IMG/VR virus record: IMGVR_UViG_3300019360_000147
Location: 1-64,000 of that record
Length of the DNA stretch: 64,000 nucleotides
From: a virus
Reading direction: 5' to 3' (one strand)
The notes beneath the pieces are model-generated. The model was given only the letters and a program-made list of their open reading frames with translations, had not been told where the DNA came from and made no database searches. Made by a program: the position numbers and the translations under genes. Shown one piece after another: positions 3 to 51,047 of this stretch (the stretch's first letter is position 1; each line of letters starts with the position of its first letter).

Positions 3-671
3 GCCTACGTGAGGCCGGTCTTGGAGGATCTCGCCTCGGGCAAGGGGCGCCTGCTGAAGGTGTCCTTTCTCTTTGAGCGGCCTGGCCGCAAAGTCTTCGC
101 CTTGGTGTGCTACGAGCGAACGCTGATGATCCCGGTGCCAGGAGATCGGGAGGCGACCCTCGGTCCGCTGGAGGTGGATGGGTCGCTGTACCTCCGGGCC
201 ACGCTGGAGAATGGACGGCCCTTCGTGGAAAATTACGCGGAGCGCATCCTGCGCTGGCTCCAGATGAAGCAGCATTTTGCAGGGCTGCACAAGCGCCTGC
301 GACTGCAACGGCGCCAGAGCGGGTCCGGGTGGAGGCAGAGATATCGGCGGGATCTGCTGCGCGTGGGATCGTTCGAGGCCTGGGCGCATGGCAGACTCCA
401 GGAATTGTCGGCCGACGTAGTGGAGACATGCCGGCGCCTCGGGATCGGGAAGCTGGCGGTCGGGCCGATGGAATTCGGCGAGTTGCCCATGGCGAAGCTG
501 ATCGGGATGCTGACCTACAAATGCGAGGAGGCTGGAATCAGCCTGGTCCGGTTCGATCCGGTCCAGCCGACGACGGAGCGGGCTATCGAGGCGCCAATTC
601 GCAAGCGGGGCCGGAAACTCGCCAAGGCCCGGCAAGCCCTCTCGGATCTGCGGGATGTGATCCAGCCGTAA
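3..671 (+). CDS. TnpB/Cas12f-like RNA-guided effector, C-terminal part (5' truncated by window edge), RuvC apparently inactive
   Basis: Frame is open to the window start. LIGMLTYKCEEAGISLVRFDP resembles the TnpB/Cas12f 'LxYKaeeaGi.v..VdP' segment, preceded by an Arg-rich helix region. The expected RuvC-I (GxDlG) reads EATLGP and RuvC-II (vvEdL) reads LAVGPM; there is no Zn finger or RuvC-III. Lies directly upstream of a CRISPR leader and array. Confidence 0.7.
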   Translation, partial: AYVRPVLEDLASGKGRLLKVSFLFERPGRKVFALVCYERTLMIPVPGDREATLGPLEVDGSLYLRATLENGRPFVENYAERILRWLQMKQHFAGLHKRLRLQRRQSGSGWRQRYRRDLLRVGSFEAWAHGRLQELSADVVETCRRLGIGKLAVGPMEFGELPMAKLIGMLTYKCEEAGISLVRFDPVQPTTERAIEAPIRKRGRKLAKARQALSDLRDVIQP

Positions 672-853
672 ATGCCGCGAACCCCGAGAGGCCAGTTCAG
701 GCCCAGGAGATTCGCGGCAGGCGGAGAGGCCACGGAAACCACGAATTACAGAGAGGAGGCGATAGGCAGGCAGGTGGGAGATTGTGTCGGAACGTCCGGT
801 TCGCGGAAAGATGGGTGTGGGGCATCAGAATTCCAGCGATTGCGAGAGGGTGA
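672..853 (+). promoter_or_regulatory. CRISPR leader
   Basis: Non-coding gap between the effector gene and the first repeat. Inverted repeat TGCCGCGAA (673-681)/TTCGCGGCA (711-719) and a further TTCGCGG at 800-806. The repeat-variant polarity of the array fits growth from this end. Confidence 0.65.
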
Positions 854-1381
854 GGCACAATCGAATCCGACACTCAGAGGGGATTGCGAGAGGTGCGCGC
901 ATGACCGAGCGGATCCTCCCGCACGGCACAATCGAATCCGACACTCAGAGGGGATTGCGAGCATGATCCCTTGGCACGGATGTTCCCTCCCCCGCGGCAC
1001 AATCGAATCCGACACTCAGAGGGGATTGCGAGCATGACAAGGATGGAAACAAGCTGTACGCGTTCCAGGCACAATCGAATCCGACACTCAGAGGGGATTG
1101 CGAGCGCACCCCCCTCATCAGGAATCACCTCCCTTCCCGGCACAATCGAATCCGAAACTCAGAGGGGATTGCGAGCGCTACGCGTGGGCATATGGCAATC
1201 GCGTTTCAGGCACAATCGAATCCGAAACTCAGAGGGGATTGCGAGTTGTCGTGGTACAGCGTGTAGCTGGCGATGTTCCCGGCACAATCGAATCCGAAAC
1301 TCAGAGGGGATTGCGAGAGAGCAGGCTGTGAACTAGCCGCTCGGCTTTCGGCACAAGCGAATCCGAAACTCAGAGGGGATT
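854..1381 (+). CRISPR. CRISPR array 1: 8 repeats, 7 spacers (32-35 bp)
   Basis: Repeat GGCACAATCGAATCCGA(C/A)ACTCAGAGGGGATTGCGAG (37 bp) starts at 854, 925, 996, 1068, 1139, 1209 and 1281. A truncated terminal repeat occupies 1350-1381. Confidence 0.98.
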
Positions 1382-1404
1382 TCTGATCAGAAAGGAGAGA
1401 TGAC

Positions 1405-6138: not shown

Positions 6139-6327
6139 ATGGAGGCCTGCAAGATTTGCGTGGAGCCGTGTACGGCCTGCGGGATGGATCCGCATGATCC
6201 CCGGTGTGGGATCTGCGGGATGCTGCACCAAGAGCCTGTGAGCCACGCCGGGGTGGCGTATTCGACCTGTGTGCGGTGTGGGAGGAGAGTATCGTCGCAG
6301 CGGCTGTTGACGTCCTCCCCGGACTGA
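6139..6327 (+). CDS. small Cys-rich protein, possibly truncated
   Basis: Four CxxC pairs; terminates inside the IS-end-like flank of array 2. Confidence 0.45.
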   Translation: MEACKICVEPCTACGMDPHDPRCGICGMLHQEPVSHAGVAYSTCVRCGRRVSSQRLLTSSPD

Positions 6328-6341
6328 AGTCCGGGGCGTCC
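6307..6341 (-). mobile_element. IS200/IS605 right-end-like hairpin (copy 1)
   Basis: Minus strand GGACGCCCCGGACTTCAGTCCGGGGAGGACGTCAA: a subterminal hairpin ending in TCAA. Identical to 10489-10523. Confidence 0.7.
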
Positions 6342-6362
6342 GCGCCCATGGAGAATCTGTGC

Positions 6363-6464
6363 GGCACAAGCGAATCCGAAACTCAGAGGGGATTGCGAGG
6401 CGCACGACCTCCGACTACATCCGCAAGCTCGCGGCACAATCGAACCCGAAGCTCAGAGGGGATT
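6363..6464 (+). CRISPR. satellite mini-array 2: 2 repeats, 1 spacer
   Basis: Repeats at 6363-6399 and 6433-6464 (truncated). Spacer GCGCACGACCTCCGACTACATCCGCAAGCTCGC. Confidence 0.93.
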
Positions 6465-6482
6465 TCTGATCAGAAAGGAGAG

Positions 6483-6514
6483 GTCAACTACCCCGCGCTA
6501 AAGTGCGGGGTCTC
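6483..6514. mobile_element. second IS200/IS605-type end remnant
   Basis: GTCAACTACCCCGCGCTAAAGTGCGGGGTCTC: a GTCAACTACCCC hairpin typical of IscB/TnpB-associated element ends. Confidence 0.6.
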
Positions 6515-6535
6515 TTGGCCGACTTTTTAGGAACT

Positions 6536-7180
6536 ATGAATCGACTCTGGTTTGACCTCGCCTTTCGCCGACGCGTGCGGGGGGAGATTCGGCGCTTGGG
6601 CCCGTGGTACCAACAGATTCAACTGCTGCCTGGCCTCTTTACCCGCCCGTGGAATCAGGCGACGATTGGGGAGTTGATTCACGCGGAACGGGGCGGACCG
6701 AAATTCCGAAGATTCCTGCTCCCAATGATCAAGCCGTATCTGCACGGGGGGACGGTTTTTGAGCTCGGCTGCAATGGCGCACAAATGCTCGTCTGCTGCC
6801 TGCGGCACGGAGCGGCCGAGGCATGGGGCGTCGAACCGGATGAGCGGTATCGCAAACAGGCCTGCCTAGTTCGGCAGTGCTTGGGCCTGCAACGACAATT
6901 GACGATCAGCAACCGGCCTCCGCTTGGTAAGAGTGTCGACATCGGTCTCATGTGTGCTGTTCTCCGGCATGTCGATCCCCTGGAGAGGGTGGGCGTGCTG
7001 CAGTCGATGGGTGAGTTCTGCAAGCGAGTGCTCATCAACGGCAATGGCTTATCGGACGCACCAGACGGGGATAGCATTGACTCGATTCTGCGGGATGTGC
7101 ACCGAACGAATCTGGTCGTTGAGGAGTTGCGATCCGAGCCGCATGTCCGCGGGCTGCGGATTCTGCTGAAGTCCCGATGA
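6536..7180 (+). CDS. class I SAM-dependent methyltransferase (CmoB/DUF1698-like)
   Basis: PWYQQIQL; VFELGCNGA...GVEPD SAM-binding motifs. Confidence 0.8.
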   Translation: MNRLWFDLAFRRRVRGEIRRLGPWYQQIQLLPGLFTRPWNQATIGELIHAERGGPKFRRFLLPMIKPYLHGGTVFELGCNGAQMLVCCLRHGAAEAWGVEPDERYRKQACLVRQCLGLQRQLTISNRPPLGKSVDIGLMCAVLRHVDPLERVGVLQSMGEFCKRVLINGNGLSDAPDGDSIDSILRDVHRTNLVVEELRSEPHVRGLRILLKSR

Positions 7181-10488: not shown

Positions 10489-10523
10489 TTGACGTCCTCC
10501 CCGGACTGAAGTCCGGGGCGTCC
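10489..10523 (-). mobile_element. IS200/IS605 right-end-like hairpin (copy 2)
   Basis: Identical to 6307-6341; identity between the copies begins exactly at TTGAC. Confidence 0.7.
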
Positions 10524-10544
10524 GCGCCCATGGAGAATCTGTGC

Positions 10545-10719
10545 GGCACAATCGAGTCCGAAACTCAGAGGGGATTGCGAGCCAACCGGACCGTCTGCCC
10601 AGCCCCGCACGATCGGGCACAATCGAATCCGAAACTCAGAGGGGATTGCGAGTTGACGTAGCGTGAGAGGTTCCCAACCAGGGTTGTGGCACAATCGAAT
10701 CCGAAACTCAGAGGGGATT
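10545..10719 (+). CRISPR. satellite mini-array 3: 3 repeats, 2 spacers
   Basis: Repeats at 10545, 10616 and 10688 (truncated). Spacers of 34 and 35 bp. Confidence 0.95.
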
Positions 10720-10752
10720 TCTGATCAGAAAGGAGAGAGGAGACGAACCGCG

Positions 10753-14662: not shown

Positions 14663-15555
14663 CCCCCATCACTATCGGCGGCATCCCTATCGGCGACGGG
14701 CATCCGTGTCGAATTGTCGCTGAGATCGGGACAAATCACCAAGGGGATCTTGACCTCGCCAAGTGGCTGATCAAGATGGCGAAGGATGTTGGTGCCGATC
14801 TGGTCAAGGGGCAAAAACGCACACCGGAGCTGGCGGTACCAAAAGACGAATGGAACGAGCCGCGGGACACGCCGTGGGGATACCAACTATCGAAACTCGA
14901 GTATCGCCGGCGGGTCGAGTTCGACGAGAGTCAGTGGGCCGAACTGCTCAGATTCGCAGCCGAAGTTGGCATTCCGCTGTTTGCCAGCGTCTGGGACGTG
15001 CCGTCCCTGGAGTGCATGGAACGGCTGGGATCTCCGTGTCACAAGATCCCGTCGGCGAGGCTGCAGGATAGGAACCTCCTTCTGGCTGCCGGATCGTATG
15101 ACCGCCCGCTGGTTCTCAGCACGGGCATGAGTACGTTTGGAGACGTGAGCCGAGCCGTAGCATGGGCGGCGTCCCCAGCCCAAGCAGACCGACGAAGCCT
15201 GCGTCTAATCCTCCTGCAGGCGACGAGTGCATATCCCGCCAAGGCCGAGGAATCGAACTTGCGGGTCATGCGATACTACCGAGAGTCTTTTGCCTGCCCC
15301 GTGGGTTTCAGCTCCCATAAGATCGGGATCGCGACCTGCCTCTTGGCCGTGGCAGTCGGAGCGAATCTGATTGAGCGGCACATTACTTTTTCGCGGGAGG
15401 CCAAGGGATCGGATCATCGAATGAGCAGCACGAGTCAGGACCTGACGCGGCTGGTGCAGGAGGTCCGGTATGCGGAGGCGTGCCTTGGGGACGGACTGAA
15501 AAAGGCGGAAGCAAGTGAACTTGCAGAGGCGAAGAGGTTGCGGGGGGCGGCATGA
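14659..15555 (+). CDS. neuB: N-acetylneuraminate/nonulosonate synthase (NeuB-like, no C-terminal SAF domain)
   Basis: IVAEIGTNHQGD; KGQKR; KIPS; LSTGMS; SAYP; GFSSH; IERHIT; GSDH. Probable CTG start. Confidence 0.9.
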   Translation: MTPITIGGIPIGDGHPCRIVAEIGTNHQGDLDLAKWLIKMAKDVGADLVKGQKRTPELAVPKDEWNEPRDTPWGYQLSKLEYRRRVEFDESQWAELLRFAAEVGIPLFASVWDVPSLECMERLGSPCHKIPSARLQDRNLLLAAGSYDRPLVLSTGMSTFGDVSRAVAWAASPAQADRRSLRLILLQATSAYPAKAEESNLRVMRYYRESFACPVGFSSHKIGIATCLLAVAVGANLIERHITFSREAKGSDHRMSSTSQDLTRLVQEVRYAEACLGDGLKKAEASELAEAKRLRGAA

Positions 15556-17282
15556 CCGCACAAGCCCACATCGACGCCTTGAAGCGGGAACGGGCTGGAC
15601 CCTTGTCTGCCTGGGGAACACCTGAGCGGGATCTGACGTGGCGGGCCCTCCGTCGGCAGTGGCACAAGCTGACGTGGGTGATGGCGATGGCCTTCACCTC
15701 CTCCGGGTTGGAGCTCCTGCGCATGGGGCTGCTGCTGGCTTTTCTGGGCTCGGCGCCCTTCCGCATCGCGCAGTGGATTCCTCGGGTGGCGCTGGAGACC
15801 GGACCACTCCTCACCGCCCTAGTGTGCGTGTCCGTGGCTGCGGCCGGACTGGACTGGTGGCGTCGGCATGTGGCTCTGCTGGTCCAGCGGGATTTCACCG
15901 AGCGCTTGCGAGCGGACGTCTGTCTGGCCATGCTGCACCGGCCGCTCGACTGGTTCACAGCCAACCCGGCCGGGCACGCCTCGTATCTGCTCAATGGCCA
16001 AGTCGGGCGGTTCTCGACGCTGGTCCCGATGGCATCGGATGGGGTGGCGGCCATTCTCCAGGGGCTGGCCGTAATCGCCCTGATGCTGTGGATGTCGGTT
16101 CCGCTGACCGTGCTGGCACTGACTGGCTCAGCGATCCTGTGGCTCTCCGTGCATCCGCTGCAACGGCGCATCCGGACGCTCAGCGTCGAGGTCTCGGTGG
16201 AAAGCGGCAAGACGGCGGCCAAGGCGGAGGAGTGCGCCTACGCCATCAAGCTCATCAAATCCTGCCGGACGGAGGCATTTGAGCGAGATCGGTACGCCGT
16301 CATGGCCCGGGCATTGGCCGAGAAGCAGGTGCGGCTGTCGGATCTGCGGAATGCGGCAGGGGGCATCACGCTGATCGGGTTCGTGGGAATCTTGGTCGGG
16401 GCCGTCTGGGCGGCACCGAATGGGACGATCCTCGCCGGCTTCGGCGTCCTGCTCCTGCGCCTGTACCCCTGCTTGACCAAACTCCTCGAAGCGAGGACGG
16501 CACTGGCGACGATGTCGGGGCATCTGGCGGCGGTGGCGGAGTTCCTGGATTCACCCACACCTCCCGGTGCTCCAAATTGGCAGGGTCGGGACGGGCTGTC
16601 TACAGATCGGATCCCACATGGCGGCATCTCCACAAGGGCCTTGGATGCCTTCTATACACCTGACAAGCCAGTGCTCGACGGGATTACTCTACAGATTCCC
16701 CGAGGACAGGCAACGGCGTTGGTCGGGTTGACGGGGTCTGGGAAGACCACGCTTCTAGATATTTTGGCAGGGATACGACCATCGCAACGGGGGGCTGTGG
16801 CAACACCAAATCCCATCGGCTACGTGACGCAGGAGCCGATTGTTCTGGCGGGTACACTCGCCGAGAACGGACTGTACGGAGCGTTCCGCAAGGCATCGGA
16901 TACCGTGCTTGGCAAGACAGCCAGCAACATTGGGATGAGGTTGGGCGATTCTCTCGCATCCAGAGGTGCGAATCTCTCGGGAGGTCAACGACAACTCGTC
17001 GCCCTTGGCCGTGTGGTGTGGCAAGGACCGGACGTATATCTCCTGGATGAACCGACGAGCGCCATGGACGCAGAAATCGAAGACCTGTCGATGGACATCA
17101 TCCTGGGAATGGCGAGGACAGCCATTGTTCTCATGGCCACACACAAGCTCTCCCTCGCTGCCCGCTTTGATCGCATCCTGGTCCTGCACCATGGGAAGAT
17201 TGTCCAGGATGGGACGCATGAGGAGTTGGTGAAGGAGGATGGGTTGTATCAACGGCTGTGGAAGTTACAGGAGATCACATGA
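15552..17282 (+). CDS. ABC exporter, fused TMD+ATPase (MsbA/PglK-like, possible glycan flippase)
   Basis: Multiple TM helices; GLTGSGKT, LSGGQRQ, LLDEPTSAMD, ATH. Confidence 0.92.
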   Translation: MTAQAHIDALKRERAGPLSAWGTPERDLTWRALRRQWHKLTWVMAMAFTSSGLELLRMGLLLAFLGSAPFRIAQWIPRVALETGPLLTALVCVSVAAAGLDWWRRHVALLVQRDFTERLRADVCLAMLHRPLDWFTANPAGHASYLLNGQVGRFSTLVPMASDGVAAILQGLAVIALMLWMSVPLTVLALTGSAILWLSVHPLQRRIRTLSVEVSVESGKTAAKAEECAYAIKLIKSCRTEAFERDRYAVMARALAEKQVRLSDLRNAAGGITLIGFVGILVGAVWAAPNGTILAGFGVLLLRLYPCLTKLLEARTALATMSGHLAAVAEFLDSPTPPGAPNWQGRDGLSTDRIPHGGISTRALDAFYTPDKPVLDGITLQIPRGQATALVGLTGSGKTTLLDILAGIRPSQRGAVATPNPIGYVTQEPIVLAGTLAENGLYGAFRKASDTVLGKTASNIGMRLGDSLASRGANLSGGQRQLVALGRVVWQGPDVYLLDEPTSAMDAEIEDLSMDIILGMARTAIVLMATHKLSLAARFDRILVLHHGKIVQDGTHEELVKEDGLYQRLWKLQEIT

Positions 17283-23038: not shown

Positions 23039-24246
23039 ACACGGTAGGAGGGTTGTGAGCAGTTGATGGAAAAGTTGAAAGCCTACAAGACCGAGCTTGA
23101 CCCCAACAACGTCCAGCGAACCTTGCTGGCAAAACATGCTGGCGCTGCGCGGTTCGCCTGGAACTGGGCGCTCGGTCGCCGTATCGAGGAATACAAACCC
23201 ACAGGCAAGTCAAGTAATGTCATCGAGCAGCATCGGCAGTTGAACGCGCTGAAATCGACCGAGTTCCCCTGGATGTACGAGGTCAGCAAGTGTGCCCCGC
23301 AAGAAGCACTGCGAGACTTGGACAAGGCGTTCAGGAACTTCTTTGCGAAGCGAGCCAAGTATCCAAGGTTCAAGAGCAAGAAGCGTGGCCTGGGCGGGTT
23401 TCGCCTGACAGGCAGCATCACCATCGAAGCAGATAGGATCAAGTTGCCTCGCCTTGGCTGGTTGCGCCTGAAGGAATCGGGATACCTGCCGACAGACGCC
23501 AAAATCAACAGCGTCACTGTCAAAGAACGGGCGGGGCGCTGGTTTGTTAGCGTCCAGGTTGAGGAGCGGTTTGCCGTCACCGAAAACCAAGGTCCGGCAA
23601 TCGGCCTTGATCTGGGCCTGAAGTCGTTCGTGGTTGGTTCTGATGGATCGTCTCTTGAATCGCCGAAGCCTCTCCTGCGATCGCTCAGGCGATTGCAGAG
23701 GTTAGCCAGGCAACACTCTCGAAAACAGAAAGGATCAATGAATCGTCGCAAGTCGGCGAAGCGACTTGCCACACTGCACTACCGGATCAGCTGCCAACGC
23801 GCTGACTTCATCCATAAGGCCACAAGTGAACTGGCAAAAACCAAGTCAGTTATCGTGGTTGAGGATTTGAATGTCGGCGGGATGCTCAAGAATCGCTGCC
23901 TTGCTAGGCCCATCGGCGATGCTGGATGGTCTGAGTTCGTCAGGCAGCTTGAGTACAAGTCGGCGTGGAATGGCGGTAGCGTGGTCAAAGCTGGCAGGTT
24001 CTACCCGTCCACGAAAACATGTTCGGCTTGTGGCATGATCAAGGACGAAATGCCATTGTCCGTGAGGACATATTGTTGCGGCGGTTGCGGGCTAGTCATC
24101 GACCGGGACGTGAACGCCGCAAGGAACCTTGTGAGACTGAGTACCGTCAGTTCGACGGGATTTCAAGCCTGTGGAGATTCGCCGTTGGGCGGGTCCGCGA
24201 AGCAGGAACCGAGCGTCATGAACAATGAGTAAGTTTCGGAGAACGG
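23034..24246 (+). mobile_element. non-autonomous IS607-type TnpB element
   Basis: tnpB only. The right end AAGTTTCGGAGAACGG ends in GG and the left flank ends in AGGG. Removing the segment restores an ATGA gene overlap. Confidence 0.65.
23066..24232 (+). CDS. tnpB: RNA-guided endonuclease TnpB
   Basis: N-terminal HTH (ARFAWNWAL); RuvC GLDLG, VVEDL and DRDVNAARN; CSAC/CGGC Zn finger. Confidence 0.96.
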   Translation: MEKLKAYKTELDPNNVQRTLLAKHAGAARFAWNWALGRRIEEYKPTGKSSNVIEQHRQLNALKSTEFPWMYEVSKCAPQEALRDLDKAFRNFFAKRAKYPRFKSKKRGLGGFRLTGSITIEADRIKLPRLGWLRLKESGYLPTDAKINSVTVKERAGRWFVSVQVEERFAVTENQGPAIGLDLGLKSFVVGSDGSSLESPKPLLRSLRRLQRLARQHSRKQKGSMNRRKSAKRLATLHYRISCQRADFIHKATSELAKTKSVIVVEDLNVGGMLKNRCLARPIGDAGWSEFVRQLEYKSAWNGGSVVKAGRFYPSTKTCSACGMIKDEMPLSVRTYCCGGCGLVIDRDVNAARNLVRLSTVSSTGFQACGDSPLGGSAKQEPSVMNNE

Positions 24247-25241: not shown

Positions 25242-26540
25242 GTTAGTACCCTCGGTGAATCTCGATGAGGATGCCGATGACGAGGATGGACAGGACAGTA
25301 GCGTAGATTTTTGGTCATTTTTGAGGGGCGAGTTACGGTCAAAAAGGGAAAAAGGCCCTCCCGGGAGGGCAGGAGGGCGGCTGGAGAGGGCCGGGGATCA
25401 GGCTGAGCCGGCTCGGGCGTCGGGGGCGAGGAGAAGAAGATCCGACAGAAGGTTGCGAAGCCGCTCGGTCACTGCGGGAGAAAAACATTCTGCTTTCGTG
25501 GTGGTGGAGTCCCGGAAGAGAAAGGCGTACCCGCCTTGGGGGAGAGAGGCTGCGCATCGGAGGGAAGGGATGGAGTCCCAAGAATTCCAGCCGGGGCGGC
25601 CGAGGGGCCTACCCCCCAGGGGGGTGGTCTTTCAGATTCCGACCAGTCGGCCGCGGCTCGGCCGGGCGATCGCCGCCCACATCATCCTGGGCCTGACTGG
25701 CGACCAGGACGGCGACCAGACTTAACGACCCCTCGTAACCTACTATCAACACACGGTCTCCATTACCGTGAATTCGACTGCCTGTCGAATACCACAGATT
25801 GTGCCTCGCGCTGTACATTTTTCAAATCAGAAGGCCAGACTCACAATCCATCTGAGTTTCTGATTCGCCGGAGCTGCCGGCGGATTGAACCCGCACCAGT
25901 CGCACGACAGCACGATTCGACCCACCCCGCTCAACGCCGGTTCCGACGCTATCACCTGAGGCGTGCCGACCCCGTTCAACGCAGCCGCGCATGGCCGCAC
26001 ACTGGCACACACAACTACACCCGCTTCAACCTCTTTCAACGTGGACACCCTGGGGCTTACTTCCACCGGATACTCTTACTCTCTCAGACGTACTTCGAGT
26101 CACTACAATCAAATCGGGTACTGTGTGCTGTATCGAGTACTTGGGACTTCAATCCGTCTCCGAGTACTCTATCCGATAGGTCGTACACTATACGTCCTAC
26201 TACAGAGTACTTCGGACTCGGACGCTAACGCGCGCGCGAGGCTTGCCATTGGCAATGTCTGCGATCCGCGAGGGGGCGACGTATTGGTATACTTTACCGT
26301 ACAAGATTGCACAAATAACTGTGCAAAAGTATTGTCATGTATCCAAAAATATTGTGCACTGTGTTTTCGCTGGCTTGGCGGATCTCCTACAGACAAAGTG
26401 CATGATTTACAGGGCAAGAGACATGGAGCAAAATACTACACGATAGTAATATCAGCCCTTTACGCCCTCAGCACCAATATTGCGCCGACAACGGTGCACT
26501 AATGAACGCCGTAGAAACAGATGACTAAAGAGGGGAAACC

Positions 26541-32917: not shown

Positions 32918-34582
32918 GTGGCCGTGGATGGCCGAAGGATGCTCCTGACGCAGGCCGCTTCGAGTAAGTGGGCGACCAACCGGCCCGGTCCGACCGCCCA
33001 GCGCATTCTCCAGTGCCGGAAGCGGGTCATTGGCGTCGAGGGACCCGTCGGCACGGGCAAGTCCAGCATCTTCAGCCAGTATATCGCCGCCCATACGGCC
33101 GAGGCCCCGGGGGCGATCTGGATCGTCATCCGCCGCACCTACCGCATGCTCCGCGATAACACCGTGCCCACGTGGATGCAGTGGTTCCCCGACGGCTCGG
33201 CCGGCCGCTGGAGCGAGGCCACCGAGACCTTCTTCCTCGATTGCCGGTTCATGGGGAGATCCCTGAAAGGCGAGGTGCGGTTTCGGAGTGCCGAGCGTCC
33301 GGAGGACATTGATAAGTTCATGGGTGGGGAGTACGCGGGAGCAGTCCTTGAAGAGGTGACGGGGACCTACCAAGAGTCCGGCGGGCTCAAGGAGGACGTG
33401 TTCACCGGACTGGGCATGCGCCTGCGGCAGTCGGGAATCCCGTGGGCGTGCGAGGTCTGTCGGCGGCTGCTGCCGACCGGACTGATCCCGACGGATCCCG
33501 ACATGGAGTACACCGACTGCCCTGCGTGCGGGGCCAGCCGCCGCGTCCGGACACGCTATCACCTCGTCCTCGTCTTCAACCCGCCGACCCCCGGCCACTG
33601 GGTGGACAAAGAGTTCCCGCTGCCAGAGCGGGAGACGGAGAGTTCCGCCCACTTCCGCATCGGGCGCCGGGAGAACGCCCACAACCTGCCTCCTGGCTAC
33701 TACCAGGCCATCGCGACGCAGTTCAAGCTCAAGGGAGATTGGGCGGCCCGGTACCTGGACGGGGAGCGGGTGCCGATCGGGCGGGCCACGTCCATCTTCG
33801 ACACCGAAGCGATCTACAAAGCGCTGGAGGAGTGGGTGCGGGAGCCGCTCTACTGCTGCACGCTGAAGCGGGACGAGCGCGGGAAGATTGTCCCAGACAA
33901 GACCGCGAATGGGCCGATCCGCGTCTGGGAGCCGCCCAAGCCGCCCGACGAAGAGCAGTATGTGATGGGGTCCGACTCCGCGGAGGGGTTGGACGAGGGG
34001 GATCCCTCCTGCGCCTACGTCCAGTCCCGGCTGACCGGCAATATCGTGGCCGAGATCCACGGGCATTTTGTCCCGCGGCGGTTCGCGAAGGAACAGGCCA
34101 TGGTCGGATGGTGGTACAACGACGCCCTGATCTGCCCGGAGGTCGAGCCGTCGGCAGCGGGGCGATCAGCGTGCGACGCGCTGGAAAACCTCGGCTACGT
34201 GAACCTGTACCTCCAGCGGAAGGAGCAGCAGATCGGGGATCCGGTCGTGAAGCGGTACGGGTTGCCGATGACCCGGACGAACAAGAGCCGGACCGTGGGC
34301 AAAGCGCGCGAGGTCGTCGAGGAGCGGCAACTGAAGTCGCCTGTGCGGGAGTTCTGGCTGGAGTTGCTGAACTTCGTCAAGCATCCCGATGGCCGGATGG
34401 CCGCTGACATCGGGCTCAAAGACGATCGCGTCATGGCGTATCTGTGTACCTTGGAGGCGTATGACCGCGCGGGCCCGTGGAAGCCGAAGCCGAAAATCGG
34501 GCCCGCCCCGGATTGGATGGGGAAACTGCTCGGGTCCTATGCCGGTGGAGCTGCGGGGGACCGGGCGTGGATGGGAAATTGA
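32918..34582 (+). CDS. terL: terminase large subunit
   Basis: Walker A GPVGTGKS, Walker B AVLEE, FNPP; nuclease YVMGSDSAEG..DPS and DDRVMA. Confidence 0.92.
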   Translation: MAVDGRRMLLTQAASSKWATNRPGPTAQRILQCRKRVIGVEGPVGTGKSSIFSQYIAAHTAEAPGAIWIVIRRTYRMLRDNTVPTWMQWFPDGSAGRWSEATETFFLDCRFMGRSLKGEVRFRSAERPEDIDKFMGGEYAGAVLEEVTGTYQESGGLKEDVFTGLGMRLRQSGIPWACEVCRRLLPTGLIPTDPDMEYTDCPACGASRRVRTRYHLVLVFNPPTPGHWVDKEFPLPERETESSAHFRIGRRENAHNLPPGYYQAIATQFKLKGDWAARYLDGERVPIGRATSIFDTEAIYKALEEWVREPLYCCTLKRDERGKIVPDKTANGPIRVWEPPKPPDEEQYVMGSDSAEGLDEGDPSCAYVQSRLTGNIVAEIHGHFVPRRFAKEQAMVGWWYNDALICPEVEPSAAGRSACDALENLGYVNLYLQRKEQQIGDPVVKRYGLPMTRTNKSRTVGKAREVVEERQLKSPVREFWLELLNFVKHPDGRMAADIGLKDDRVMAYLCTLEAYDRAGPWKPKPKIGPAPDWMGKLLGSYAGGAAGDRAWMGN

Positions 34583-45163: not shown

Positions 45164-45298
45164 GCAGTCGGCGATTCGACAACTGAACGACCCAACCGTT
45201 CGGCTGATCACCGGACGGTCCGCAAGGAAACAGAGGCCCAGGAACCGTAGCTACGGGCGGTTGCTGGGCTTTCTGTTTTGGGCTCCTGGAGCAACGCA

Positions 45299-47521
45299 GT
45301 GGCCGACACGCAGGTTCTCGAGCAGGACGTTTCCTACGAATCCAGGCAGCCGGCTGGTGCCGTGGAGGAGCAGCAGGACCTTCGCGTGCCGGATGATCGT
45401 GCTTCGTGGGCGATCGGACTCATCTACGAGTGGGAGAACGGGAAGGGCAAGGAGCTGCGGGAACGCGCCAAGAAGATGTTCAAGTATTACAACGGGGACC
45501 AGTGGGATCCGACGGTGCGGTCCAAGATGGAGTCCTCGGACGATCCCCGGCCCGTGATGACGTTCAACGAGATCCGGCCAAAGATCGACATCCTGTCGGG
45601 CGAGGAGCGACGGAATCGCGAGGACTGGGTCGCCAAGCCGCGGGAGGGGTCCGATGAGGAGGAGGCCCAGATCCGCACGGCCCTGCTCAAGTACAAGCGG
45701 GACCAGAACACGCTGGCGGTGGAGGAAAGCCGGGCGTTCGAGGAGGGCATTATCGGGGGGTATGCCGGCGTGGCCTGTGACCTCGTGGCCGATCCCGAGG
45801 GCGGGGCGCCGTTGATCCATGTCGAGGCGCGGGACTGGTCCGAGTTCCGGTGGGATCTGACCAGCCGCAAGCCCGATATGACGGACGCACACTGGATGGC
45901 CTTGTCCGTCATGGCCAGTCCCGACCGGCTGTCCGAACTCTTTCCAAACTGGTCGGTCGAGATCAACGGCGAGTATGCGAGCCTTTGTCACGACCCCCTG
46001 ATCGAGGAAGCGGATATCGGCGAGCGCATCGGCGTGACCCGCTATCTCGATGGCCGGATGCGGAAGACCCTCTTCGATACGAAGGAGAAGAAGATCCGCA
46101 CGATCCAGTTCTACTACCGGACGATGCGGAAGCGGGAGTACCTGACGATCCAGGGTCCGCAGGGCCTCGTGGAGCGGGAGGTTCCGGAGGGCGACAACAA
46201 AGAGTTGCGGGCACTGGCCGATCAACTTCTCCTGACGGGACGCGCCCAGCGGAAGATTGTGGCCGAGAAGGCGATCCGGGGCCTTTTGATCGTCGGGCGG
46301 CGGACGCTGGCGCAATGGTGGTCGCCGTTCGACGGGCAGGATGCCTTCGGGACACCCTACTTTCCCCTGCATCTCTGGAAGGCCTCGGACACCGATGGCT
46401 ACATCATGGGCCTGGTCGAGTCCTTGGTAAGTCCGCAGGATGAGGTGAACAAGCGCTGGACGATGATGGTCGAAAACTACCTCAAGACGGCGCGCTCCGG
46501 CGGGTTGTACGAGGAGAACGCGTTCGAGAACGAGGCGGAGGCGAAGCGGAAGTGGGGATCTCCCGGCTACTGGGCGAAAGTCCGTCAAAACGCCATCAGT
46601 CAGCAACGGATCAAGGAGCACACGGCGAAGCCCCCAGACACGGCCCTGATGATGCTGTTCCAGGCCGCCGAGGCCAGCGTGGACCGGATCAGCAACATGG
46701 ACAAGGGCCGAATGGGGATGCTGAGCCGGGAGGAGAGCGGGGTCGCGATCCGGACGCGAGCGGTCCAGTCTGCGCTGGTCCAGGTCAAGGCGTTCGACAA
46801 CTTCCGGAACTTCCAACTCCGACTGGGGCGATTCCTGAATGCCAATCTGCATCTGGAGTTCCCGGTGCGACGCACGATACGCCTCGTGATGCCGACCGGG
46901 GACACGAAGTCGGTCGTGCTGAACGAAGTCGTCCGGACGCAGACGGGGGCGACCCGGATCGCGAACAACACGCGGTCGGCTGGCCTCTACGACATCATCA
47001 TGGATCTGACGCCTGGCAACGCGACCTTCCGGGAAATGCAGGCGCAGAACCTGGGGAATCTGATCGGGCAGATCGGGCCGCCCATGAAGGAGTTGCCGTG
47101 GTTCCTGCCGGCCTACGCGGCCCTGTTGAAGGGACAGATTAAGATGATCGACGGGCTGCCGAATCGGGACGAGATCATCAAGGCCCTGGACGCGGCCACG
47201 CAGGCCGTCGCCCAGGGCGGTCCTGGGGCCCCCGGCCAGCCCCCGCCCCCGCCCGAGCCGAAGGTTTCCATTGCCCTCAAGGGCGACCTCTCGCCCGAGA
47301 CGGCCGCAGACCTTGCGGATGGTCGGTTAGACAGCCAGCCGATCCCCGCACAGCCTGAGCCGCCCACTGGAGCATCCACCACGGTCCGCCCAAGTGTTCC
47401 GCGGGCCGTGCCCAGGCCTGCGCCTCCGGGACCCCCGGGGGGGCTACCCTTCACCCCGGCCGCACTGACGGTGCCGCGCGCCGGGCCAGTCGGGACACCG
47501 AACATCATGGGAGGTCCCTGA
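45299..47521 (+). CDS. portal protein (P22-like)
   Basis: YYNGDQWD, P.MTFNEIRP..GEE, SPQDEVNKR, ESGVAI, YDIIMD; about 740 aa. Confidence 0.9.
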   Translation: MADTQVLEQDVSYESRQPAGAVEEQQDLRVPDDRASWAIGLIYEWENGKGKELRERAKKMFKYYNGDQWDPTVRSKMESSDDPRPVMTFNEIRPKIDILSGEERRNREDWVAKPREGSDEEEAQIRTALLKYKRDQNTLAVEESRAFEEGIIGGYAGVACDLVADPEGGAPLIHVEARDWSEFRWDLTSRKPDMTDAHWMALSVMASPDRLSELFPNWSVEINGEYASLCHDPLIEEADIGERIGVTRYLDGRMRKTLFDTKEKKIRTIQFYYRTMRKREYLTIQGPQGLVEREVPEGDNKELRALADQLLLTGRAQRKIVAEKAIRGLLIVGRRTLAQWWSPFDGQDAFGTPYFPLHLWKASDTDGYIMGLVESLVSPQDEVNKRWTMMVENYLKTARSGGLYEENAFENEAEAKRKWGSPGYWAKVRQNAISQQRIKEHTAKPPDTALMMLFQAAEASVDRISNMDKGRMGMLSREESGVAIRTRAVQSALVQVKAFDNFRNFQLRLGRFLNANLHLEFPVRRTIRLVMPTGDTKSVVLNEVVRTQTGATRIANNTRSAGLYDIIMDLTPGNATFREMQAQNLGNLIGQIGPPMKELPWFLPAYAALLKGQIKMIDGLPNRDEIIKALDAATQAVAQGGPGAPGQPPPPPEPKVSIALKGDLSPETAADLADGRLDSQPIPAQPEPPTGASTTVRPSVPRAVPRPAPPGPPGGLPFTPAALTVPRAGPVGTPNIMGGP

Positions 47522-49290: not shown

Positions 49291-50283
49291 ATGGCTGACA
49301 CCACAGTCGCGACGGGTGATGCCGTCGCGGTCAAGCGATGGGATCCCAAGTTCATCAGGCAGGCGAGCAAGAAGATCTTTTTCGCCGCCATGACGGGCAA
49401 GGATGAGAACAACATCGTCCAGAGCAAGCTCGACCTGACCAAGGGGCCGGGGGATCGGATCACGATGCCGCTCTTCCCGCGGTTCTCCGGGGCCGGCGTA
49501 CAGGGCGATGTGGACATTGAGGGGAATGAGGAGGCGATTACGCCGCAGAGTGACAACGTGTCCATCGACTTCTACGCCCAGGCCTTCCGGGTCAGCGGGC
49601 TGATGACGGAGCAGAGAAGCCCCGACGATCTCCGGCGGGCGGCGCGGGAGCAGTTGTCGATCTGGCTGGGGGAGAAGGTGGACCAGCTTGGCTTCGATGC
49701 CATCGAGTCGAGCCCGACTCTGATCTATTCCGAGAACTCGGACACGCTGGTCAAGTCCGGCCCGACCACCTCGATCGTGGCCGCTGATCTGATCGAGCCG
49801 CACATGGCGAGCTTCCTGCGCCATGCCGCGAACACCCAGAGTCCCAAGATCAAGTGCATCAAGCAGGGCGGGCGGGATGTGTTCGTGCTCCTGATGCACC
49901 CGCACTGTGCCTACGACATGAAGAATGACAGCACCTGGCAGAACTTCCACCGGGACGCGGACGTGCGCGACGCCAAGGACAACTACCTGTTCAAGGCCGG
50001 GATGGGGACGATCGACGACGTCCTGCTGTATGAGCATGAGAACGTCGCCGTCGCGACCACCTGGGGGGCGGGGGCGGTCTATGGGGCGCGGAACAAGTTC
50101 ATGGGGGCGCAGGCTATGGCGCTCGCGTGGGCGCGGTTCCCGTTCCTGGTGGAGAAGCGTTTCCAGTATGGCACGAAGTGGGGGGCCATGGTGGGGGCGG
50201 TGCTCGGGTTCCGGAAGCTTGTTTACGATAGCAAGGACTTTGGGCTGGCCGAATTGAGGACAGCACGAACGAATCTAAACTGA
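49291..50283 (+). CDS. major capsid protein (N4-gp56/DUF4043-like)
   Basis: DLTKGPGDRIT, GVQGD..IEGNEE, MHP..YDMKND..W, FMGAQA; strong SD. Confidence 0.9.
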   Translation: MADTTVATGDAVAVKRWDPKFIRQASKKIFFAAMTGKDENNIVQSKLDLTKGPGDRITMPLFPRFSGAGVQGDVDIEGNEEAITPQSDNVSIDFYAQAFRVSGLMTEQRSPDDLRRAAREQLSIWLGEKVDQLGFDAIESSPTLIYSENSDTLVKSGPTTSIVAADLIEPHMASFLRHAANTQSPKIKCIKQGGRDVFVLLMHPHCAYDMKNDSTWQNFHRDADVRDAKDNYLFKAGMGTIDDVLLYEHENVAVATTWGAGAVYGARNKFMGAQAMALAWARFPFLVEKRFQYGTKWGAMVGAVLGFRKLVYDSKDFGLAELRTARTNLN

Positions 50284-50342
50284 GTTAACTCCATGAGAAT
50301 AAAGTCGTTCCAGGGGTTAATTCTGACTTGAAGGAGGAGGAC

Positions 50343-51047
50343 ATGCCAACGGAGGAGAAAGCGCGGCAACCTTCCACAGCGGCAACGGCGGTGGCGGACC
50401 CGCCGCCGTCAGATAGGAAACTGGTTCAAGTCGACGCCGATGTCTGGGCGGAGATCGTCCGAAGGCAGGGGGCCATGGAGCGGATGCTGGAGCAGATCCA
50501 GGCCGAGCGTGCCGCCGGTGGTCCGACGCCGAACATCATCAGACCGCCCGTCGTCGCCAAGACCATGCCGCCGAACTACGTGGTCTGGCTGGGAACTGAG
50601 CCCCGCTCGGGCGATTTGTATCTGGGGGCCAAGGGCACGGTCACCACGGTCAACTCCGAGGAGACGACCGTGATGACGGACGGGGACGGCCACGGCAAGC
50701 CGCGGACGATCCGGGGGCAGCTCTGTGCGTTCCGGACGACCGAGTACTCGGATTCGGGGATGAAAAGCATCGATTTCATCCGCCGATGCCCCTCGGGGCA
50801 CAAGTATGCCGGTCGGCTGTTCGCGGAGTTGGACTGTCCGGAGCATGCGGCGTACCTGCATCTGATCGCGCCGGACGGCAAAGGGCACGACAAGGATGGA
50901 AACAAGCTGTACGCGTTCCACCTCATCGGGGACTGGATTCCCAAGTACCAGAACCTGGTGCGGTTCCGCATGAACGCGCGGAAAGCCGCCGAGGTGGATG
51001 TGGACTTTGTCGCCTCGGATGGCGTGGAGATGCCGTTCGAGGAGTAG
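50343..51047 (+). CDS. hypothetical late protein; contains the protospacer for spacer 3
   Basis: SD AAGGAGGAGG; 50886-50920 matches the spacer at 1033-1067. Confidence 0.75.
   Translation: MPTEEKARQPSTAATAVADPPPSDRKLVQVDADVWAEIVRRQGAMERMLEQIQAERAAGGPTPNIIRPPVVAKTMPPNYVVWLGTEPRSGDLYLGAKGTVTTVNSEETTVMTDGDGHGKPRTIRGQLCAFRTTEYSDSGMKSIDFIRRCPSGHKYAGRLFAELDCPEHAAYLHLIAPDGKGHDKDGNKLYAFHLIGDWIPKYQNLVRFRMNARKAAEVDVDFVASDGVEMPFEE

Follow-up and report, generated by a model that had tools for sequence, protein, structure and literature searches.

Gene, array and partner at the left end of a tailed-phage genome

The stretch of DNA analysed here, referred to as the window, comprises bases 1-64000 of the linear, 73,725-bp IMG/VR virus record IMGVR_UViG_3300019360_000147, and opens with the 3' part of a gene for a Cas12f-like protein, which is followed on the same strand by a CRISPR (clustered regularly interspaced short palindromic repeat) array and by the gene for a small partner protein. 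An initial annotation had proposed that the locus encodes a phage-borne, apparently nuclease-dead TnpB/Cas12f-like effector with its own CRISPR array. The phage origin is evident from PHROG matches to genes typical of tailed phages, namely large terminase (32918-34582), portal (45278-47521) and major head protein (49291-50283), in a record whose completeness is estimated by CheckV as 100% and whose GC content is 63%. The annotation had also noted that cas1 and cas2 are missing from the window, and no match to either was found across the whole 73.7-kb record. The features of the module are as follows:

3-671, + strand: C-terminal 222 codons of the nuclease-dead Cas12f-like effector (an open reading frame (ORF) open at its 5' end, recognized by the family profile and by identity to relatives)
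672-853, + strand: leader between gene and array, containing repeat-like debris as judged from sequence
854-1386, + strand: CRISPR array 1, in which eight repeats (37 nt) alternate with seven spacers (32-35 nt)
1382-1399, + strand: shared array tail TTCTGATCAGAAAGGAGAG, exact copies of which start at 1382, 6465 and 10720
1405-1758, + strand: small partner protein of 117 aa, conserved beside the effector gene in relatives

The effector ORF is open from base 3, with no stop codon upstream, and closes at the stop codon at 669-671. As initially annotated, it runs off the left edge and ends 182 bp before an eight-repeat array (the gap occupies 672-853 and the first full repeat starts at 854). In relatives the full-length protein has ~410 aa, which places the N-terminal ~170-200 residues outside the record; since the first base of the record is also that of the window, these residues are missing from the record and not from the gene. 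Indeed the family profile matches the record only at 3-662, corresponding to profile positions 168-382 of 389, and the same search recovered no N-terminal half from the opposite contig end. At that right end (73588-73725, outside the window) lies a GC-rich tandem repeat with a 12-nt period (GGTCGGGGTCGC-like), which probably caused the assembly break that truncated the effector gene; a similar tandem tract is present in one related contig (L008:12835-13230), 1.2 kb from its module. The codon bias of the effector ORF is that of the phage genes (GC at third codon positions, 0.81), and the fragment is 52-53% identical to the full-length relatives P0001-P0003. Its translation contains the motifs ...REATLGPLE..., ...KLAVGPMEFGE... 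and ...MLTYKCEEAGISLVRFDP..., and then a tail of 41 residues that is rich in lysine and arginine and has no cysteine, so that the TnpB/Cas12f-like segment LTYKCEEAGISLVRFDP, the EATLGP and LAVGPM motifs and the Cys-free basic tail on which the earlier proposal was built are all present. Pfam returned only sub-threshold matches to the effector (Cas12f1-like_TNB, E 0.0047; OrfB_IS605, E 0.079).

Array 1 consists of the repeat GGCACAATCGAATCCGAMACTCAGAGGGGATTGCGAG, copies of which start at 854, 925, 996, 1068, 1139, 1209, 1281 and 1350. The eighth copy (1350-1386) is degenerate at its 3' end, where it diverges after GGGGATT. The array is thus oriented along the gene strand with its degenerate repeat at the far end, which fits a handle formed by the 3' end of the repeat. 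The window contains 13 copies of the repeat core, as against none in 100 shuffles. The leader holds a degenerate repeat copy at ~727-765 and, at 819-846, a truncated one that ends with GATTGCGAG, 7 nt before repeat 1; between the two, a complementarity scan picked out 9 nt (780-788) complementary to positions 1-9 of the repeat. The tail of the array, a 12-nt palindrome and a Shine-Dalgarno-like sequence leading into the next gene, is identical after all three arrays of the phage (the other two are described below).

The association of array and gene was assessed in three further IMG/VR contigs (L006-L008) and eight metagenome contigs (L009-L016), which encode effector relatives that are 29-62% identical. 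Repeats on the same strand were found downstream in 9 of the 10 relatives that could be judged (L006-L010, L012 and L014-L016), at a distance of ~60-500 bp from the effector gene or from a small ORF behind it; L011 has one repeat-like element only, and the L013 contig ends at the gene. The relatives' repeats are 36-37 nt long, with spacers of ~34-39 nt, and differ between loci yet can be aligned, with a 3' part (G.GG.A.TGARRG) that is conserved. Since 9 of 10 relatives carry a co-oriented downstream array whose repeats are homologous and diverged, the array belongs to the effector protein, and the claim that the effector has its own array therefore stands. By analogy with type V systems, the co-divergence of repeat and protein fits what would be expected of a co-evolving pair of effector and CRISPR RNA (crRNA), in which the repeat 3' end would act as a handle upstream of the guide. 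The near-identical loci L014 (11521-11790) and L016 (~1010-1050) differ only in the array, which has four repeats and three spacers in the former and one repeat in the latter; judged from these sequences, the difference represents recent gain or loss of spacers, and no cas1 or cas2 was seen on the contigs. Outside the phage record, an exact scan of IMG/VR for the repeat found none. The genes that neighbour the relatives' modules include RusA-, ParB- and DnaB-like phage genes, named by eye.

The partner gene, which the initial annotation had missed, starts directly after the terminal repeat of array 1. Its homologues lie between the effector gene and the array in L006, L009, L010, L011 and L012, and distant ones are present in L015 and L016. 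The protein represents a previously undescribed family of ~100 aa, with only 14 clusters among 5.8 billion proteins, four of which come from contigs equal in size to contigs that carry effector homologues. An AlphaFold2 model shows three helices packed as a bundle and a disordered tail that is often basic (predicted local distance difference test score (pLDDT) 71 overall and ~80 in the helices). No relative was found in Pfam, PHROGs, PDB sequences or BFVD, and a fold search of 48,161 PDB chains gave no match, the best Z of 6.4 being to generic helical hairpins. Among its neighbours in a protein language model is a small 'sigma-70 family' cluster (score 0.90), which is a weak lead only. The ORF directly after the partner gene (1755-2168, 137 aa) carries a signal resembling that of lipoproteins (LLAGC) and an extended, glycine-zipper-like tract rich in Gly and Ala, and is not conserved in the relatives' modules.

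Fold and catalytic site of the effector family

When 1.84 billion cluster representatives were searched exhaustively with phmmer, 89 relatives of the effector were identified, as clusters at 50% identity. Most have 330-460 aa, and the phage fragment aligns with their C-terminal halves up to a common end point. The relatives come from metagenomes and phages only, one of them from a metagenome-assembled genome (MAG) of Vicinamibacterales, and are 'hypothetical proteins' without Pfam domains. A scan of IMG/VR with the single effector fragment gave no match, genome contigs searched with close-clade patterns gave none, and the family profile A3 produced one weak match, a 452-aa ORF, in 401 Acidobacteriota genomes.

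Kinship with TnpB and Cas12f, previously proposed from short motifs, is borne out by both profile and structure. A 20-member profile (alignment A1) matched Cas12f chains in the PDB with E values of 6e-11 to 4e-10, the best being Cas12f1 (9i8y, 6e-11), with AsCas12f at ~1e-10, and matched the natural 'nuclease-deactivated Cas12f' 9n9c at 1.4e-8 in a single end-to-end stretch; chains labelled TnpB gave 0.0035 or worse. The AlphaFold2 model of the full-length relative P0002, which is 53% identical to the phage fragment and was modelled from a 65-sequence alignment, has a mean pLDDT of 90.4. Foldseek aligned this model with Cas12f structures at 1e-16 to 1e-14 (best 1.8e-16), and its VIA Z scores, over ~330 residues, were 22.8 for SpCas12f1, 22.2 for AsCas12f and 20.9 for OsCas12f. 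The corresponding values for other type V and TnpB proteins were 19.7 (natural dCas12f), 17.5 (Un1Cas12f), 16.0 (Cas12k), 13.9 (TnpB) and 13.1 (Cas12m). Thus the model has the bilobed fold, with WED, REC and RuvC parts, of Cas12f and TnpB, and its top PDB matches are all Cas12f.

Each element of the RuvC nuclease site has been lost. The initial annotation had aligned the RuvC-I and RuvC-II positions by eye, and the choice proved correct when hhalign set the effector against the phage's own TnpB (69491-70591), the RuvC-II Glu of which (in ALEDL) falls opposite the Gly of (L)A(V/I)GPM. Among the 65 aligned sequences, the RuvC-I column holds a hydrophobic residue (L/V/I/F/M) in every member, is Leu in the phage protein and is Asp in none, while the RuvC-II column, occupied by Gly in the phage protein, is acidic in only 6 of the 65. 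No member has an intact RuvC D-E-D triad, and the RuvC-III segment is absent from all 65. It had further been suggested that a basic helical tail replaces the zinc finger and RuvC-III. In agreement with this, CxxC does not follow the FDP motif in any of the 65 sequences, whose tails have at most 61 residues, and the Pfam match to the zinc-finger TNB domain spans only profile positions 3-29 of 60; the tail of the P0002 model is a single long helix (residues 378-414). Because the dead residues are common to the 65-member alignment, loss of the nuclease is ancient and family-wide, and not the defect of a single copy.

Mini-arrays, spacers and guide RNA

The same repeat recurs at three further places in the window:

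6307-6492, + strand: mini-array 2, comprising a leader block (6307-6362), two repeats and one spacer (6363-6469), and the shared tail
10489-10737, + strand: mini-array 3, comprising a leader block (10489-10544), three repeats and two spacers (10545-10724), and the shared tail
25797-25868, - strand: orphan repeat-spacer unit, made up of 29 nt from the 3' end of a degenerate repeat, then a spacer, then the initial 9 nt of a repeat

The 56-bp leader block is identical before both mini-arrays; it starts with TTGAC and contains a GC-rich hairpin, CCCCGGAC-TGAA-GTCCGGGG. It occurs nowhere else in the genome, including the surroundings of the two canonical TnpB genes of the phage. The shared tail of mini-array 3 lies directly before gene 10754, and both array 1 and mini-array 3 lead immediately into the start codon of the gene behind them. 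Downstream of mini-array 2 there is a hairpin (CCCCGCGC-TAAA-GTGCGGGG) and a run of T (6470-6537), ahead of the ribosome-binding site of the next gene, an arrangement that looks like a terminator of its own. The repeat part of the orphan unit is identical to the repeat at 25 of 29 positions, with one gap, and its spacer has 34 nt (25839-25806); on either strand of the genome no other alignment to the repeat, apart from the arrays, scores at least 36.

Both mini-arrays are embedded in a co-oriented block of glycan-biosynthesis-like genes (2433-24745), and are probably transcribed together with these operons, to judge from their position and orientation. By eye the block includes glycosyltransferase-like ORFs, a WecB/TagA-like ORF and a sugar phosphotransferase-like ORF, and it contains an ABC exporter (15552-17282; PHROG 'ABC transporter', 3e-71). 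The two TnpB genes, apparently intact, lie at 23063-24232 of the window (+ strand, 389 aa) and at 69491-70591 of the contig (- strand, 366 aa). The former was recognized from its N-terminal sequence only; in the latter, which is outside the window (L005:9491-10591), the RuvC-I, RuvC-II and zinc-finger motifs are visible by eye. The closest genomic copies found of the 366-aa protein are 51-55% identical and come from MAGs of Blastocatellia and Capsulimonadaceae. This similarity (at most 55% to a Blastocatellia MAG copy), together with the effector-family member in a Vicinamibacterales MAG, provides hints only as to the host.

One spacer matches the phage itself:

50886-50920, + strand: protospacer of array 1 spacer 3 in the phage's own genome, 34 of 35 positions matching

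The protospacer falls within gene 50328-51047, which closely follows the major head gene. Its 5' flank is AAAGGG, and pairing of the crRNA would be with the template strand. Guide position 3 holds the only mismatch, which falls in a third codon position and is synonymous (CAC versus CAT, both His). For a type V effector, position 3 would lie in the seed. The simplest reading of these sequences is that spacer 3 was derived from a close relative of the phage, and that the resident copy would be spared by the change in the seed. An exact match to spacer 3 was not found in IMG/VR, and the array gave no match in INPHARED. There were no self-targets in two related viral records (G001 and G002), and in the phage's own genome no seed-length spacer matches above chance. 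Among the 401 Acidobacteriota genomes the best spacer match covered 31 of 36 positions; it lay in purine-rich sequence within a pstC-like gene and was judged to be due to chance.

Of 32 spacers from across the family, 6 lie antisense to a Shine-Dalgarno sequence plus start codon, compared with a background of 5.9% (binomial p = 0.01), and these include spacers 1, 2 and 4 of array 1. In addition, all seven spacers of array 1 (891-1349) have pyrimidine-rich 3' ends containing TTCC, TTTC or TCCC. As the stretch in spacer 3 lies within the matched target, the pyrimidines come from the target and not from the repeat; they could represent a signature of acquisition or selection, or the reverse complement of ribosome-binding sites.

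With respect to the RNA that would accompany the guide, an Rfam search gave no match in the leader, the predicted fold of which (z-score -0.19) is no better than that of shuffled sequence. Neither RNAduplex nor complementarity scans identified an anti-repeat that is consistent across loci, and comparison of the loci revealed no conserved internal repeat hairpin or consensus repeat structure. The loci are nearly devoid of non-coding space. Pairing with a second RNA is usual for repeats that lack an internal hairpin, and a need for a trans-activating crRNA (tracrRNA) would be consistent with this.

Proposed function and relation to known systems

The data directly support the fold, the family-wide catalytic loss, the linkage of gene, array and partner, the absence of Cas1 and Cas2 and the near-match to the phage itself. 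From these we propose that the module is probably, and with considerable room for doubt, a self-contained, phage-encoded CRISPR system derived from type V-F that has no adaptation genes and that carries out RNA-guided binding and silencing without cutting. Binding without cutting appears well grounded in the alignment and the model, whereas RNA loading, DNA binding itself, silencing and the role of the partner are what we infer from sequence. In the proposed mechanism the effector, of ~410 aa, would retain the WED/REC/RuvC scaffold, a basic helix having taken the place of the lost RuvC-I Asp, RuvC-II Glu, TNB and RuvC-III, and the dedicated three-helix protein of ~100 aa would be the second component. 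Array 1 would be transcribed with the early gene block and the mini-arrays within glycan operons. Transcripts of these same-strand arrays would be cut into crRNAs, each with a repeat 3' end as the handle 5' of a guide of ~34 nt, and loaded onto the effector. The complex would then form R-loops on matching DNA beside a 5' adjacent motif, without cleavage, and so act as a roadblock, a natural form of CRISPR interference (CRISPRi), on genes of rival phages, mobile elements or the host; a synonymous seed change in the phage's own copy of the target would spare self. If this is correct, the module is a ready-made multiplex CRISPRi system of ~410 aa, and it would also illustrate how viruses can turn CRISPR components on their rivals or hosts while leaving DNA uncut. 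Concrete, testable questions are posed by the partner and by the guide-RNA scaffold.

It should be emphasized, however, that several observations weigh against this interpretation. The gene is incomplete in the record, and the N-terminal half of the effector is deduced from relatives only. Proteins of the size of Cas12f normally require a large RNA scaffold, and neither a tracrRNA nor another scaffold was located at the loci. Of the 11 spacers, 10 had no target in the searches made. The rU:dG wobble that guide position 3 would form with the phage's own protospacer may be tolerated, in which case the effector could bind, and might regulate, the phage genome. The excess of start-site spacers, although suggestive of selection for the 5' ends of genes, is modest and depends on a loose motif. 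Finally, sequence does not separate silencing from activation or recruitment.

It could indeed be argued that the effector delivers its strictly linked partner, and hence RNA polymerase or another enzyme, to sites specified by the guide, and that such RNA-guided recruitment or activation might switch on late or glycan genes of the phage itself. The closest dead relatives do recruit sigma-E, using a 5'-G adjacent motif with the transcription start 45-48 bp downstream (PMC13472631), and the self-protospacer described above likewise has a G directly 5' and is oriented toward downstream late genes; the 'sigma-70 family' neighbour of the partner adds its weak lead. In contrast, the partner has no detectable sigma, helix-turn-helix (HTH) or other known domain, and the record contains no match to sigma-70 region 2 (Sigma70_r2), its single match to region 4 (Sigma70_r4_2) being a sub-threshold one of 14 bits in an excisionase-like ORF (73382-73444). 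In addition, 1 of 11 spacers matches the phage itself, with no seed-length self matches above chance. We therefore regard recruitment as unlikely. A more specific version, in which the module is a programmable three-part transcription controller whose effector, guided by crRNAs from arrays that lie within phage operons, would bring the partner to promoters or gene starts, recruiting or blocking RNA polymerase, seems similarly doubtful; if true, the controller would time the late and glycan genes and rewire host genes, and would be a second, independent case of RNA-guided transcription in which a new adaptor replaces sigma-E.

The arrays might also be viral mini-arrays that lack Cas proteins and use a class 1 (type I or III) complex of the host, the dead Cas12f-like gene being unrelated or an anti-CRISPR decoy. 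The 37-nt repeat, the spacers of 32-35 nt and the repeat 3' end ATTGCGAG, which resembles the 8-nt handle ATTGAAA(C/G), are compatible with such a proposal, as is the absence of adaptation genes from the record; viral cas homologues can serve as anti-CRISPRs, according to one report (10.1101/2023.06.24.545427). This reading is nevertheless quite improbable, since the order of gene and array recurs in nine further loci with repeats that have diverged in step with the protein, the relatives' repeats mostly do not end in ATTGAAA-like sequence (...CTGAAGG, ...GTGAAGG, ...GTGCAAG), and an exact scan found the repeat nowhere in IMG/VR outside the phage record, with no such array in the 401 sampled Acidobacteriota genomes. 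Less probable again is a helper of homing or transposition, similar to Cas12k or TnpB, that would mark sites, the mini-arrays with their 56-bp block being copies of a cassette. The identity of the block before both mini-arrays and of the tail after all three arrays, the presence of two canonical TnpB genes and the moderately good match to the Cas12k fold (Z 16) are in its favour. Duplication of array ends by recombination is, however, a simpler account of the copies, the block lies beside neither TnpB gene, and no transposase was noticed beside the module in the loci read, in which no search aimed at Tn7-like or TnpA genes was made. That the locus is merely a decaying remnant, a nuclease-less Cas12f/TnpB gene on its way to loss beside a fossil array, is very hard to credit. 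While all three catalytic elements are gone and the gene is incomplete in the record, the truncation is that of a contig edge and not of a mutation, 65 full-length relatives that have diverged keep the dead architecture, along with conserved motifs and a confidently modelled fold, the codon bias is that of a genuine gene, the repeats are uniform and spacer content differs between close relatives. The conservation and diversification of the family (89 clusters; model pLDDT 90) argue for function and against decay.

Evidence that naturally nuclease-dead relatives of Cas12f and TnpB serve as RNA-guided repressors (TldR) and activators (dCas12f-sigmaE) is recent. The suggestion that the phage effector represents an undescribed clade holds to the extent that the family is unannotated; the kind of protein is already in print, as dead truncated Cas12f (PMC13472631) and as TldR (10.1101/2023.11.30.569447). 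The TldR proteins are TnpB-like nuclease-dead repressors, some of which are encoded by prophages (10.1101/2023.11.30.569447; PMC13418256), and prophage-borne TldR proteins repress host flagellin. They share with the phage protein a phage-borne setting, a dead nuclease and C-terminal truncation within the TnpB/Cas12 superfamily. TldR is a direct descendant of TnpB, with a lone omega-RNA-like guide encoded 3' of its gene and no array; the phage protein, in contrast, is nearer to Cas12f (6e-11, Z 22.8) than to TnpB (0.0035 or worse, Z 13.9) and has arrays. Cas12m (type V-M) and Cas12k (type V-K) are likewise type V effectors that bind double-stranded DNA without cutting, and Cas12m silences by binding (PMC11013384). 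Both are larger than the phage effector and match its modelled relative less well (Z 13.1 and 16.0, respectively). Cas12m keeps a modified RuvC for crRNA processing, and Cas12k works with Tn7-like genes, of which none was noticed beside the phage module in the loci read, no dedicated search having been made.

The best structural and profile matches are to the Cas12f nucleases themselves (SpCas12f1, 9i8y; AsCas12f, 8dzj/8j12; OsCas12f, 9nzs; Un1Cas12f, 7c7l), with which the phage family shares a size of ~400 aa, a repeat of 36-37 nt and a co-oriented array downstream of the gene. The family differs from these enzymes in being only 12-14% identical to them, in having replaced the RuvC-I Asp and RuvC-II Glu, and in having a basic helix instead of TNB and RuvC-III, while the module is phage-borne, lacks cas1, cas2 and cas4, has no tracrRNA that could be found and includes a dedicated small partner. 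Natural dCas12f proteins with a truncated C terminus occur in Bacteroidota, where most are linked to sigma-E and direct RNA-guided transcription (Hoffmann et al. 2026, PMC13472631; PDB 9n9c/9n9m); a separate dCas12f cluster adjoins CRISPR arrays and has been proposed to repress (PMC13472631), and an evolutionary scenario for dCas12f has been published (PMC10691335). These proteins and the phage family have in common the Cas12f fold (Z 19.7, profile 1.4e-8) and the loss of part of the RuvC site through truncation at the C terminus. The phage family is, however, ~15% identical to dCas12f, a match no closer than that to active Cas12f. Given identities of 12-16% to active Cas12f and to Fta-type dCas12f alike, it is plausible that inactivation occurred independently of that in Bacteroidota. 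In place of the operonic rpoE (with its C-terminal extension) or HTH gene of the dCas12f-sigmaE systems, the phage module has an unrelated three-helix protein; in place of chimeric single guides with guide segments of 14-16 nt, it has regular arrays with spacers of 32-37 nt; and it resides in phages, here with 63% GC, whose hosts are probably not Bacteroidota. In the literature searched we found no description of a phage-encoded dead Cas12f with arrays. The phage branch would extend the known range of naturally dead Cas12f by showing that ordinary multi-spacer arrays can be kept, joined by a previously undescribed partner and spread as mini-arrays through a phage genome.

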